From: Nitrosopumilus sp.
GTDB taxonomy: Archaea; Thermoproteota; Nitrososphaeria; Nitrososphaerales; Nitrosopumilaceae
DNA length: 64,000 nucleotides
Assembly: GCA_965223425.1 (NCBI GenBank)
Contig: OZ245003.1
Location: forward strand, 992,001-1,056,000
Direction of reading: 5' to 3'
Shown: positions 32,935 to 61,867 of the stretch, in pieces
Layout of the letters: every line of letters starts with the position of its first letter
Position numbering within the stretch: position 1 is the stretch's first letter
Translations under genes and position numbers: made by a program
The notes under the pieces: model-generated
The model's input: only the letters and a program-made list of their open reading frames with translations
Database searches by the model: none
What the model was told of the DNA's origin: nothing

Positions 32935-33348
32935 CTAAATGTATCTGAAAATTGTTGGTTTTTCTGATTTTGGGTTCTCAGAAACAAGTGCAAAATTGTA
33001 TAATGGATACTCTTTTTTGTATTGTTTCATAAAACTCCACGCCACATCATGCGTTTTAAATTCAGTTCTAATGCCGTCAATCTGGCTCTTTTTTCCAAAC
33101 ACATCAAAGACTACCACTGAATATTGTTTAGGACGATTGTGAGGTTTTGCTTTAAGAAACCATGCAAGTGCAAAAACAAAGACTGATCCTAAAATTACAT
33201 ATTCTCCGGCTACTTTGAAAAATGCCATAACAACTCCTGGTATGGTTTGTCCAAACAGAACTGCCATAAAATTTGAAAATGAAATAACTGCTAGTGCTGT
33301 TATGATGTACGTTTTCCAATTAAAGACTTTTTGAAAAATATTTGGCAT
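32935..33348 (-). CDS. Hypothetical membrane protein
   Basis: Two TM segments plus a conserved-looking C-terminus. Confidence 0.75.
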   Translation of the reverse strand: MPNIFQKVFNWKTYIITALAVISFSNFMAVLFGQTIPGVVMAFFKVAGEYVILGSVFVFALAWFLKAKPHNRPKQYSVVVFDVFGKKSQIDGIRTEFKTHDVAWSFMKQYKKEYPLYNFALVSENPKSEKPTIFRYI

Positions 33349-33371
33349 CTATTTTTAATGGATCTTTTTTG

Positions 33372-33560
33372 ATTTAACTATTTCCCATGAAGGTTCTGTG
33401 AAGTTATCGGGAGTTAACCCCTATAACTCGACTTTGACATATCGGCTATTCGGATTGCCAATGGTGTGCCGGATTCCGTCATCGCCGGCTCAAAAGTGCC
33501 GGACTGCGCTTCACATATGTCATCTCTACTGCCCCTAAACCTGGGGGGCAGCTTGCGTGA
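33372..33560 (-). ncRNA. Putative omegaRNA (scaffold plus ~20-nt guide) overlapping the tnpB 3' end
   Basis: Minus-strand stems ctgcccc/ggggcag, tgacatat/atatgtca and ccggc/gccgg, and a terminal hairpin using the TIR. Position matches known TnpB omegaRNAs. Confidence 0.6.
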
Positions 33561-34682
33561 TATGTTGTTCATGGCAGCGACAATATCCCTGTCCATAAAC
33601 AAACCGCAATTATTACACGACAGTTTACGATGCTGTTGCATGTCCTCTTGGAGTCTCTTTCCGCATTGCGGACACTGCGTGCTCGTGTTTCTTGGGTCTA
33701 CATATTCGACTGGCGGGAGCCCGACCCATCGGGCTTTGTATTCTATTTGGCGTTGCAGCTCGTAGAATTGCCACCCGTTCAATCTGCGCCTGTACTTGTT
33801 GCCCTGACCATTTCCTTTTTTGTAGAGTTTTCTAACTCCTTTCAGGTTTTCTAGAACGATTGCAGCCTTTTCTTTGACGGCATTATCCACAATATCCTTT
33901 GATATTCTGTGGATGTACTGCCTTGCTCTGTCAGTCATTCTTCGCTGTTTTATCTTCCAGAACTGGTTTTTCTTCCTGCGGTCATTTCTGTGGAAGCCTG
34001 CCCTGGCGTGTACTGTGTTCTCCTTTATGGATAACAGTTTGTTTGTCTTGCAGACTGTCACCCCTTCCTCGCTCCCACACGTCACATTTCTTAGGTTTCT
34101 GTCTATTCCAACTTTCTTGGTGCACTCTATCTCTTGTACTTTTTTTGAAACACAAAGACTGATGTTGAGGGCAGTCAGTGAAAACGAGCGCACCGTCAGG
34201 GCGGGATCAGACAGGATTTTTTGGGTGTGATCGTTGAGTAAGATGTTGATTGTGTTGTGTTTCTTGTATGGGATTGTTAGTAGTGCACCGTTGTGTTTTA
34301 TGCCGTAACAGTTTGTCATAAAGGGATTTTTGACTATTGGGTCTCTTATTCTGACGCCTCGTTTGACTGATTGTTTTCTGTTTGATAATATGCCTGCAGC
34401 TCTTGATATTGCACATATCTTGTATGACGATAAAATGCCATAGTTACGCAATTCGTGACAACATAACATGGACAGCCTCTTCATATTGTGAGTGTCTTCT
34501 TTCAACCCTATCTTGATGCAATGATTGGCCATCTTTGTGAATGTAGCCGCCATATCCATTAGGTCAGAGTTTGGCGCATATTTCTGTGATATTGGCTTTA
34601 TCGCCTTCAGCGAATATCTTGCGGTTTGGAGGCTTGTACATTTTGGGAATTGACATGTAACTCCCGATAACTTCACAGAACC
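33392..34682 (-). mobile_element. Non-autonomous TnpB-only element with 25-bp perfect TIRs and an 8-bp TSD
   Basis: TIR ggttctgtgaagttatcgggagtta at 33392-33416 with its exact reverse complement at 34658-34682; flanks cccatgaa (33384-33391) and cctatgaa (34683-34690). Confidence 0.88.
33414..34640 (-). CDS. tnpB: TnpB / Cas12f-like RNA-guided endonuclease
   Basis: RuvC-I VGIDRN, RuvC-II VLENL, Zn finger CPQC...CNNC, RuvC-III DRDIVAAMN. Start uncertain: the ATG at 34656 is out of frame and the first in-frame ATG is near 34559. Confidence 0.92.
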   Translation of the reverse strand, partial: CTSLQTARYSLKAIKPISQKYAPNSDLMDMAATFTKMANHCIKIGLKEDTHNMKRLSMLCCHELRNYGILSSYKICAISRAAGILSNRKQSVKRGVRIRDPIVKNPFMTNCYGIKHNGALLTIPYKKHNTINILLNDHTQKILSDPALTVRSFSLTALNISLCVSKKVQEIECTKKVGIDRNLRNVTCGSEEGVTVCKTNKLLSIKENTVHARAGFHRNDRRKKNQFWKIKQRRMTDRARQYIHRISKDIVDNAVKEKAAIVLENLKGVRKLYKKGNGQGNKYRRRLNGWQFYELQRQIEYKARWVGLPPVEYVDPRNTSTQCPQCGKRLQEDMQQHRKLSCNNCGLFMDRDIVAAMNNISRKLPPRFRGSRDDICEAQSGTFEPAMTESGTPLAIRIADMSKSSYRG

Positions 34683-34708
34683 CCTATGAATAAAAATACG
34701 TACGACAG

Positions 34709-60641: not shown

Positions 60642-61867
60642 GGTGCTGTCCAAATTTTTCCCGGAAATTTCCAGAAAAGCTTATAGATCATGACGAAATC
60701 CTGCTGCAAGGCTTTTGGATCACGGGCTTGGCACCATGTCAATGTCAAAACGACGAAAAAAGGGCAGGAAAAACGGACAGCATGACGCCCACGTCCGAAG
60801 GTACAGGATCCAGATGTGCCGGAACTATTCAGCATACGAGAAGAAGCGGAGGGGCGAGGGCAACAAGATAGTGACGAGGATCAAAAAACTCAAAGAAATG
60901 ATCCCCGCCGTCTTGGAGGGCGCCTCCAAGGACGAGACATCGGCACTATTGTGCGTGCTGGACATGGTGTTCCGTAACCACTCGTACAGGGTTCACGTCA
61001 CGTACATGGAACTGCACCCGGGTACGGTAAACGCCTACGGCCTAAAAAGGATTCCATCAAAATCGTCACTGCACAACATGGCAAAAGCGCTGTCAGGGAG
61101 GATCGAGCAGCTCGCAGGACTGCTTCTGGCACAGGCAGGAGACGACGCGCGCGGCACCGTCATAGGCGACTCGTCTGGGTTCTCCATCATGAATTACGTG
61201 GACTGGGAGGACGCCAAGAAAGGACTCGTCTCAAGGCGCGAGTTTGACAAGCTGCACGTGCTGGTGGCCCCGCACGGCATGATATCTGCGTGCGAGGTGA
61301 CGTACGGCAGAAAGCACGACTCGCCGGTGTTCTGCGACATGTACGGGAGGATCCCGCACGGCGACACCGGCGGCCACGTCCTGCTGGATGCGGCATACCT
61401 CTCAAGGAAGAACTGCCGTATCATTGCAGACAGCGGAAGGGAGCCGGTCATATGTCCCAAGAAGAACTCTGTTCCCAGGGGGTTTAACCCCATGGGAAAA
61501 ATGCTTCGCTGGCACAGGGACGACCCGTGCGGGTTTGCAAAGGCCTACGGCCAGCGCAGCCTGGTGGAGAACACGTTTTCTGTCATGAAGGAGAGGTTCG
61601 GCGCAGTCGCCCGTGCAAGGACGGCATCCATGAGAAGGCTGCAGCTTGTCCTAAAGTGCATCTGCTACAACCTGGTCGCATAAGACTGCCGTAATGCGGA
61701 GAGGGCTTTCCCAGCGTAAGCTGTACTCCTGCTTGCCATTCTTTGGGACAAGGCACCTGATGACGGTGTCACCGGTATTCTTCTGGCATGGGCAGCACCG
61801 ATGCTTGCCTGTTTTTGCGCAAAAATCACGAAACATGTGATCGAAATCAGTCAATTTGGACAGCACC
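60642..61867 (+). mobile_element. IS5-family element with a 9-bp TSD
   Basis: TIR ggtgctgtccaaatt / aatttggacagcacc; TSD gccgtctgc at 60633-60641 and 61868-61876. Confidence 0.9.
60715..61683 (+). CDS. IS5-family DDE transposase (intact)
   Basis: GDSSGF, KLHV, HDSP, LDAAY and YGQRSLVENTFSVMK motifs. Confidence 0.9.
   Translation: MDHGLGTMSMSKRRKKGRKNGQHDAHVRRYRIQMCRNYSAYEKKRRGEGNKIVTRIKKLKEMIPAVLEGASKDETSALLCVLDMVFRNHSYRVHVTYMELHPGTVNAYGLKRIPSKSSLHNMAKALSGRIEQLAGLLLAQAGDDARGTVIGDSSGFSIMNYVDWEDAKKGLVSRREFDKLHVLVAPHGMISACEVTYGRKHDSPVFCDMYGRIPHGDTGGHVLLDAAYLSRKNCRIIADSGREPVICPKKNSVPRGFNPMGKMLRWHRDDPCGFAKAYGQRSLVENTFSVMKERFGAVARARTASMRRLQLVLKCICYNLVA

Follow-up and report, generated by a model that had tools for sequence, protein, structure and literature searches.

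The accepted role of TnpB is to assist the homing of transposons whose excision leaves no scar; its role inside prokaryotic DDE transposons is an open question. Altae-Tran et al. described in 2023 six DDE-associated branches of TnpB with inverted terminal repeats, in the sections of their paper devoted to these branches (PMC10691335), and the passages of a 2026 review that deal with such DDE-linked cases present them as rare and unexplained (PMC13565253). On the transposase side, an account of the IS6 family gives, in its passages on target duplication and movement, an 8-bp duplication as the hallmark of the family and presents replicative movement, with no excision step, as the presumed mode of its elements (PMC7986276); IS200/IS605-style rescue of a donor site after excision would therefore not apply to them. 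Here we describe a tnpB-bearing element in a 64,000-nucleotide stretch of a Nitrosopumilus genome, the whole of which we call the window (C1:992001-1056000 of the 2.64-Mb genome labelled G000). At the left ends of this family a one-sided 3-nt motif abuts a freely varying 8-bp duplication, an arrangement that would link nuclease targeting to the fate or placement of DDE insertions.

The element, its TnpB and its IS6-type ends

On the minus strand of the window, positions 33392-34682 form an element of 1291 bp, whose 25-bp terminal inverted repeats match perfectly and which is flanked by a target duplication of 8 bp. Its sole gene and sole long reading frame is tnpB, and it encodes no transposase. 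The parts are as follows.

33414-34610, minus strand: tnpB gene (Pfam PF07282, NCBIfam NF040570)
34658-34682, minus strand: left terminal inverted repeat, 25 bp, identical in sequence to the right one
33392-33416, minus strand: right terminal inverted repeat, whose last 6 nt, AGAACC (33392-33397), are unpaired, with a hairpin on one side and the flank on the other
34683-34690, minus strand: left 8-bp target-site duplication, TTCATAGG, 7 of 8 letters identical to 33384-33391
33384-33391, minus strand: right copy of the duplication, TTCATGGG

The protein matches Pfam PF07282 at 2e-20 (73.1 bits, cut-off 26.3) and belongs to the curated TnpB family NCBIfam NF040570 by its score of 115.8 bits (cut-off 100); its closest solved structures by sequence are Cas12f and TnpB chains (E about 1e-10). 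The translation contains the RuvC motifs GIDRN, LENL and DRD together with a zinc finger, CPQCG..CNNCG (CxxC..CxxC), and the equivalent D, E, D and four C residues are invariant in an alignment with a distant clade. The dN/dS ratio of tnpB is 0.08-0.24 between subfamilies (measured against 12 relatives) and 0.35 among eight copies of G000 itself. Judged by its sequence, TnpB is intact and under purifying selection. Its stop codon (33414-33416) forms the innermost 3 nt of the right repeat. At the other end, the homologous N-terminus begins at 34608-34610, where relatives, namely the copies on the Nitrosopumilus MAG chromosome OZ240211.1 (hereafter G041) and other subfamilies, have the start codon TTG and where the codon here is CTG. 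Because CTG replaces TTG in all nine near-identical copies of G000, expression of full-length TnpB in this genome is uncertain. Two other starts are available in frame, namely a GTG within the left repeat (element nt 7-9) and an ATG at 34557-34559, 17 codons downstream, a start at which would drop the protein's first conserved strand. A 30-codon frame at the left end was considered as a frameshifted N-terminus and ruled out, since the homologous N-terminus of the relatives lies in the main frame.

A DNA search of G000 with the element gave 42 matches, comprising nine copies at 95-100% identity, three at 83-86%, two split by other insertions, and fragments; full or split copies number about 13. 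The 8-bp duplication and the short, near-perfect terminal repeats are those of IS6/IS26, and the traits of the IS1341 group of IS200/IS605 (no inverted repeats, no duplication, asymmetric hairpin ends) do not describe the element. We classify it, from these ends, as a non-autonomous IS6-type element, an assignment that is absent from the first-pass annotation of this DNA.

Candidate sources of the missing transposase exist in both genomes, in the form of PF13610 (IS240-type, IS6 family) transposases with long zinc-finger N-termini. A 1970-bp PF13610 DDE element in G041 (746475-748444) has an 8-bp duplication, and the first 18 nt of its repeat recur in one TnpB subfamily (L089/L099/L102); in G000, the ends closest to the element's repeat adjoin only degraded DDE genes, and the intact DDE genes have somewhat different repeats. 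Because its ends and duplication are of IS6 type, and because a DDE element in a relative has part of its repeat in common with a TnpB subfamily, the element is probably mobilised in trans by an IS6-family DDE transposase. The swapped flanks of two inverted copies, and deletions beside right ends, are compatible with replicative cointegrate transposition. The IS240-type transposases at C1:917303-918337 and 258918-259946 of G000 and at 746888-748096 of G041 are 340-400 aa long, and their N-terminal extensions are rich in Cys/His pairs; the usual length of an IS240-type (IS6) transposase is about 240 aa.

Several features of the surrounding genome deserve mention in their own right. The two inverted copies with exchanged flanks lie at C1:1325308-1326598 and C1:1451399-1452689; the left duplication of each matches the right duplication of the other, and both left flanks have the motif described below. 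As read from the junctions, the exchange is the trace either of recombination that inverted 126 kb or of an intramolecular event of IS6 type. One orthologous left junction is occupied in both G000 (C1:2292571-2294969) and G041 (L102) by elements of different subfamilies, with 78% protein identity and differing repeat interiors. The former copy is split by a 1.1-kb insertion and the latter has a 40-bp deletion beside its right end; the shared site could reflect an ancient insertion with later homogenisation, or re-use of the site. The first 8 nt of the repeat occur 233 times in C1 of G000, in several distinct end families of at most about 27 copies each, and the genome is rich in IS-like ends of the element's kind. 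The window also holds, at 60642-61867, a member of another repeat family (1226-1235 bp, five genome copies) with different inverted ends and 9-bp duplications.

The RNA scaffold and the terminal hairpin

The first-pass annotation had noted nested stems in the tail of tnpB and a final hairpin involving the right repeat, and had named covariation as a check. The predicted structure is as follows.

33430-33552, minus strand: conserved omegaRNA-like scaffold (covariation; the synonymous rate falls in this part of the reading frame)
33545-33552 with 33528-33535, minus strand: stem A, with an invariant loop (covariation)
33511-33522 with 33435-33445, minus strand: stem B (covariation)
33498-33502 with 33485-33489, minus strand: stem C (covariation)
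33475-33478 with 33451-33454, minus strand: stem D (covariation)
33398-33432, minus strand: terminal hairpin, whose 3' arm is the inner right repeat (MFE fold)

The scaffold alignment comprised 28 distinct homologous tails of 172 nt each, ending in ..AAAGTC and drawn from G000, G041 (33 of its 35 loci), G004, G021 and two other MAGs. RNAalifold predicts 33 pairs in it, and 17 of these show compensatory double changes; the covarying pairs include 7 of the 8 in stem A and all 5 in stem C. Scaffold cells are paired in 97.1% of cases, against 88.2% in shuffles (none of 500 as high), and sliding the partners by 1-3 columns leaves only 28-45% of cells paired. A single-sequence fold of the element's tail gives z = -3.2. 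By this score and the shuffles the nested stems go beyond chance, and the covariation is evidence for a structured RNA that begins near 33552 and reaches the right end. Across the 12 relatives, dS is 0.09-0.82 in the tail of the reading frame versus 0.24-2.6 in its core, and dN/dS is 0.44-0.82 in the tail versus 0.08-0.24 in the core. The frame runs on through the scaffold, yet these rates place the constraint there on the nucleotides, which supports the view that the gene's final ~160 nt fold as a structured RNA. Covariation and the drop in dS together indicate what is expected of a TnpB locus, namely a structured RNA that overlaps the 3' end of tnpB and reaches the right end of the element.

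The family is abundant, since a profile of the RNA region finds 17 copies in G000, and 43 scaffolds lie in 1.19 Mb of G041. An Rfam 15 scan of the element returned no matching family, its sole match (E = 0.23) being to a human lncRNA model and attributable to chance. In a small share of one metatranscriptome run, contigs match 33392-33750 at 90-99% likeness and show neither ends, strand nor transcription level; one of them crosses the right end into another flank, from which only the presence of the sequence in an RNA library follows. Short derivatives of 344-497 bp (C1:1199933-1200276 in G000; near 144139, 516600, 549013, 736377, 803552, 852832 and 871066 in G041) keep both repeats and the RNA scaffold and have lost most of tnpB, and TTA stands upstream of most of them. 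These derivatives could be guide-RNA-only MITEs, possible users of TnpB made elsewhere.

Between the scaffold and the flank stands the terminal hairpin. Its 5' arm (33418-33429) is a degenerate inverted copy of the repeat interior and pairs with the right repeat in the MFE fold, as had been claimed, so that only AGAACC separates the hairpin from the flank. Past ..AAAGTC the tails of the family no longer align and vary in length from 25 to 102 nt. The MFE helix nevertheless pairs the letters just after the scaffold with the inner right repeat, and leaves AGAACC single-stranded, in about 15 of 26 distinct tails. The 5' arm is in each case a degenerate copy of the subfamily's own repeat interior, and the closing helix recurs in most subfamilies with differing interiors and loop lengths. 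The distant clade, whose TnpB is only 34% identical, has the same layout. The hairpin is weak or displaced in L101, L084/085/088 and L040, and 8-9 nt are left unpaired before the flank in L089, L099, L092 and L050. When arms were swapped between tails, own arms gave -11.0 and crossed arms -8.7 kcal/mol (none of 10,000 permutations as low), a difference that is inflated for short tails because their arm windows overlap. The left and right ends, folded in 41-nt windows, reach -5.3 versus -7.1 kcal/mol, a small difference. If the RNA has this architecture, omegaRNAs may tolerate an insertion of 25-100 nt just before the guide. A pseudoknot between AGAACC and the invariant loop of stem A (GGUUU), for which five pairs are possible in the main clade, was considered and set aside as unsupported by covariation, because two members end in AGUACC with no matching change in the loop.

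The conserved 3' structure might alternatively be some other cis element, such as a transposase-binding site or DNA hairpin, a stabiliser or terminator of the transcript, or a device of translational control. The hairpin does include the repeat that a transposase must bind, and Rfam offers no family for the structure. However, G-U pairs and compensatory changes fit an RNA, the left end has no comparable hairpin by eye, and a cis element would leave the one-sided motif described below unexplained. The position of the structure also agrees with that at every TnpB locus studied, no more than 250 bp from the right end according to the sections of PMC10691335 that deal with locus layout. We regard a cis element of this kind as highly improbable.

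The motif at left junctions and its owner

34691-34693, minus strand: TAM-like motif directly 5' of the left duplication, TTA here, with the family consensus (T>A)-T-(G/A)

In the left flank, ...TTTTTA precedes the duplication and then the left repeat, just as the first-pass annotation had it, and from this single junction a TAM of TTTA had been proposed. We examined 59 distinct main-clade left junctions from G000, from G041 (a complete scan of its first 1.19 Mb, together with its other loci), and from G004, G021 and two MAGs. Left out of the count were C1:654737 and C1:783913 (truncated left end), L040 (left flank shorter than 20 nt), left ends with at least three repeat mismatches and no duplication, and three distant-clade loci; shifting the boundary of L101 by one base restored its duplication. 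A duplication with at most one mismatch was taken as intact, which holds for 37 of the 59 junctions. Relative to the left duplication, TR was read at -2/-1, and WTR and TTR at -3..-1.

Left side, directly 5' of the duplication (n = 59): TR 55, WTR 52, TTR 42
Mirrored positions, right side (n = 59): TR 11, WTR 6, TTR 6
Left side, duplication intact (n = 37): TR 37, WTR 36, TTR 28

The difference between left and mirrored positions is significant at 1e-18 in a Fisher test, in which junctions from the same genome are not fully independent. A conserved motif thus precedes the left duplication and is confined to that side (TR at 55 junctions versus 11 mirrored ones), the outcome for which the earlier proposal of a junction survey had looked. 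Genome-wide, TR, WTR and TTR have frequencies of 0.130, 0.079 and 0.041. The commonest triplets at -3..-1 of the 59 junctions are TTG (22), TTA (20), ATA (7) and ATG (3), and at none of the four junctions without T-R is there a matching duplication. The base at -4 is close to unconstrained (T 21, A 19, C 12, G 7), and the motif is therefore better written (N)TTR than TTTA; the earlier reading stands in that a T-rich motif ending in R lies 5' of the duplication, and is amended in that the motif has three letters. Nine short derivatives (344-839 bp) with repeats and RNA region and with little or no tnpB follow the same rule, with TR in 8 of 9 and WTR in 7 of 9.

Such a motif may belong to TnpB or to the transposase. 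If it reflected where the IS6-like transposase prefers to insert, the nuclease and its RNA would be cargo, and guide and TAM would have nothing to do with it. Target preferences often adjoin duplications, and a control set of eight elements, few in number, with similar ends and a duplication and without the RNA scaffold, has WTR on one side in four cases, above the 0.15 expected by chance (p = 0.02). These four are a 141-bp MITE, a 1794-bp element, an 851-bp element and one DDE element (ATA), and the motif is therefore not wholly specific to omegaRNA carriers. Re-use of sites may inflate this control, because the MITE (C1:1088904-1089044 in G000), which has no RNA scaffold and follows TTG, occupies or adjoins the place of the TnpB element L092 in G041. 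The transposases themselves speak against such a preference: of the six sides of the three DDE-bearing elements that have a duplication, none has strict TTR and one has WTR. Moreover, although both repeats consist of the same 25 bp, the motif stands on one side only, follows the orientation of tnpB (WTR at 52 of 59 versus 6 of 59), and sits exactly where the TAM of a TnpB or Cas12 must sit relative to the sequence transcribed past the right end.

The distant (L055) clade bears on the same question. Its seven junctions with intact duplications read TAT (4), ATA (2) and TTG (1), and TAT is found at 4 of 7 junctions there versus 0 of 37 intact junctions in the main clade (p = 3e-4); across the junctions compared, the motif tracks the TnpB clade. 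The two clades also differ in their repeat interiors, so a difference between transposases could give TTR in one and TAT in the other. We favour assignment of the motif to TnpB because it is one-sided despite identical repeats and because TAT is preferred in the distant clade, and we consider a preference of the transposase quite unlikely. The 1794-bp element of the control set (C1:1860917-1862710; similar ends, 8-bp duplication) contains a homopolymer stretch of some 230 nt, and neither a transposase nor TnpB is recognisable in it.

Predicted guide, proposed mechanism and relation to known systems

33372-33391, minus strand: predicted guide template, consisting of the right duplication TTCATGGG and 12 nt of flank (from the geometry of the right end)

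The 20 nt after the right repeat read as they had been quoted in the first-pass annotation. All 11 loci of relatives are empty at this place, with one copy of the 8 bp and no element, and span from the end of the upstream gene to a conserved AAATAGTTAAATC. Conversely, 10 places in G000 that are orthologous to insertions of other genomes were compared, and about 5 of them are recognisable as empty sites (L055, L081, L079, L097, L041), the remainder being rearranged or too diverged to read. Three DNA runs searched for joints of the empty allele contained none. In 13 of 13 G000 copies, the 16 nt that follow the right end match the genome exactly at one place only, which is the copy's own right junction, preceded by ..AACC and not by the motif. 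On paper, the earlier layout of empty and occupied sites holds in that the empty site has the motif and the full target, the left junction has the motif and 8 nt, and the right junction has the full target and no motif. A guide made of duplication plus flank, with the motif upstream, fits these arrangements, and we infer from the sequence at both junctions that the element would spare itself. The flank from which the guide would be drawn, AAATAGTTAAATCAAAAAA (33350-33383, minus strand), is strongly conserved across 11 relatives (L221-L231) and lies just upstream of a small gene (32935-33348). It may be the promoter of that gene, in which case the element has inserted directly upstream of it.

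Taken together, the explanation that fits best, and in which we have fair though far from full confidence, is an IS6-type non-autonomous element that carries TnpB and an omegaRNA, takes its guide from the flank, recognises a TTR TAM and is subject to a homing filter. The omegaRNA would come from the 3' end of tnpB and the right end of the element, and would consist of the four-helix scaffold, a hairpin that tucks the repeat away, and AGAACC. Transcription would read through into the flank, giving a guide of the 8-bp duplication and the next ~8-12 nt. An empty site, with TTR, one 8-bp copy and the flank, would be a complete target; at an occupied site, the left junction would offer only the motif and 8 bp and the right junction a full match with no motif, so that the element's own locus would be spared. 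An IS6-family DDE transposase encoded elsewhere, as the shared ends suggest, would move the element, after which TnpB would cut empty alleles, and repair from the occupied copy would favour insertions that lie beside the motif in the right orientation. Nearly all surviving copies would then stand beside the motif because homing favours such insertions. Homing would require empty and occupied alleles to meet in these archaea.

The motif score of 37 of 37 intact junctions is very strict for a filter that acts only after insertion, and it keeps alive, together with the replicative habit of IS6 elements, a reading in which the TnpB ribonucleoprotein acts at insertion itself: recognition of a TAM would mark or distort the DNA by TTR, and the DDE transpososome would insert there in one orientation. 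Selection on random insertions would predict less strictness than the motif's abutment of the duplication shows, derivatives with only the RNA region obey the rule (TR in 8 of 9), and DDE-bearing elements that have no RNA show strict TTR on none of six sides. However, the donor's guide does not match new sites, so that only TAM binding could act, and TAM binding is transient in known systems. The strict orientation would in addition require a physical link between TnpB and an end of the element; metagenome-derived genomes show mostly fixed alleles and may hide unfiltered insertions; and we know of no TnpB that acts at the insertion step. We consider such action unlikely. If true, it would couple an RNA-guided nuclease to DDE transposition naturally and without CRISPR, and the 8-bp duplication would by design become part of the next guide. 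The element family also supplies a TAM prediction, a register for the guide, and an architecture of the RNA in which the hairpin is predicted to be dispensable.

A literature search for a link between TnpB and the IS6 family found none, although the supplements of PMC10691335 might list an IS6-linked branch. The search likewise returned no description of a hairpin that sequesters a repeat, none of a motif lying beyond an 8-bp duplication of free sequence, and no report of TnpB for Nitrosopumilus or Thaumarchaeota. Among described systems, Cas12f (type V-F) provides the best solved-structure relatives by sequence. It uses a T-rich 5' PAM of the TTTR/NTTR kind, and the present element differs in having no CRISPR array and in a guide taken from the transposon flank.

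The DDE-associated TnpBs resemble ours in lying inside inverted-repeat elements with the 3' end of tnpB at most 250 bp from the element's end, and solo members have the same ends as elements that encode a transposase and are considered to be mobilised in trans (PMC10691335, sections on these branches). The families named in the corresponding passages are IS630, ISL2 and IS1031, and not IS6 (PMC10691335, PMC13565253), and those of PMC10691335 describe neither a TAM beside a duplication nor a repeat hairpin. The IS6/IS26 family shares with the element the 8-bp duplication, repeats that are short and nearly perfect, derivatives of MITE type, and inversions and deletions next to copies (PMC7986276, passages on family traits), and the PF13610 transposases of G000 and G041 carry similar ends. 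Unlike the family, the element has no transposase, and the same passages list one passenger gene, for a hypothetical protein, mention no TnpB, and describe no one-sided target motif (PMC7986276).

In Fanzor systems, inverted repeats flank the nuclease gene, the omegaRNA lies at the right end with its guide outside the repeat, and "ghost" copies consist of the repeats alone, as the passages of Saito et al. 2023 on their loci describe (PMC10432273). Their short fixed duplication, however, forms part of the TAM on the left and of the RNA scaffold on the right, according to the review's passages on Fanzor (PMC13565253), whereas in the present element the motif falls outside the duplication, whose 8 bp are free in sequence. 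The TnpB-omegaRNA of ISDra2-type IS200/IS605 elements is similar in its protein of about 400 aa, in a structured RNA that runs over the 3' end of the gene to the right end, and in a guide taken from the flank, with a TAM 5' of the target beside the left end and the occupied site spared. Those elements have no inverted repeats or duplication, and their TAM is the transposase's own target word (PMC13565253, passages on IS200/IS605). The element described here has, in contrast, 25-bp repeats, a variable 8-bp duplication that is predicted to supply the first 8 nt of the guide, and a hairpin before the guide that would sequester the repeat, and it would have no excision step to rescue.
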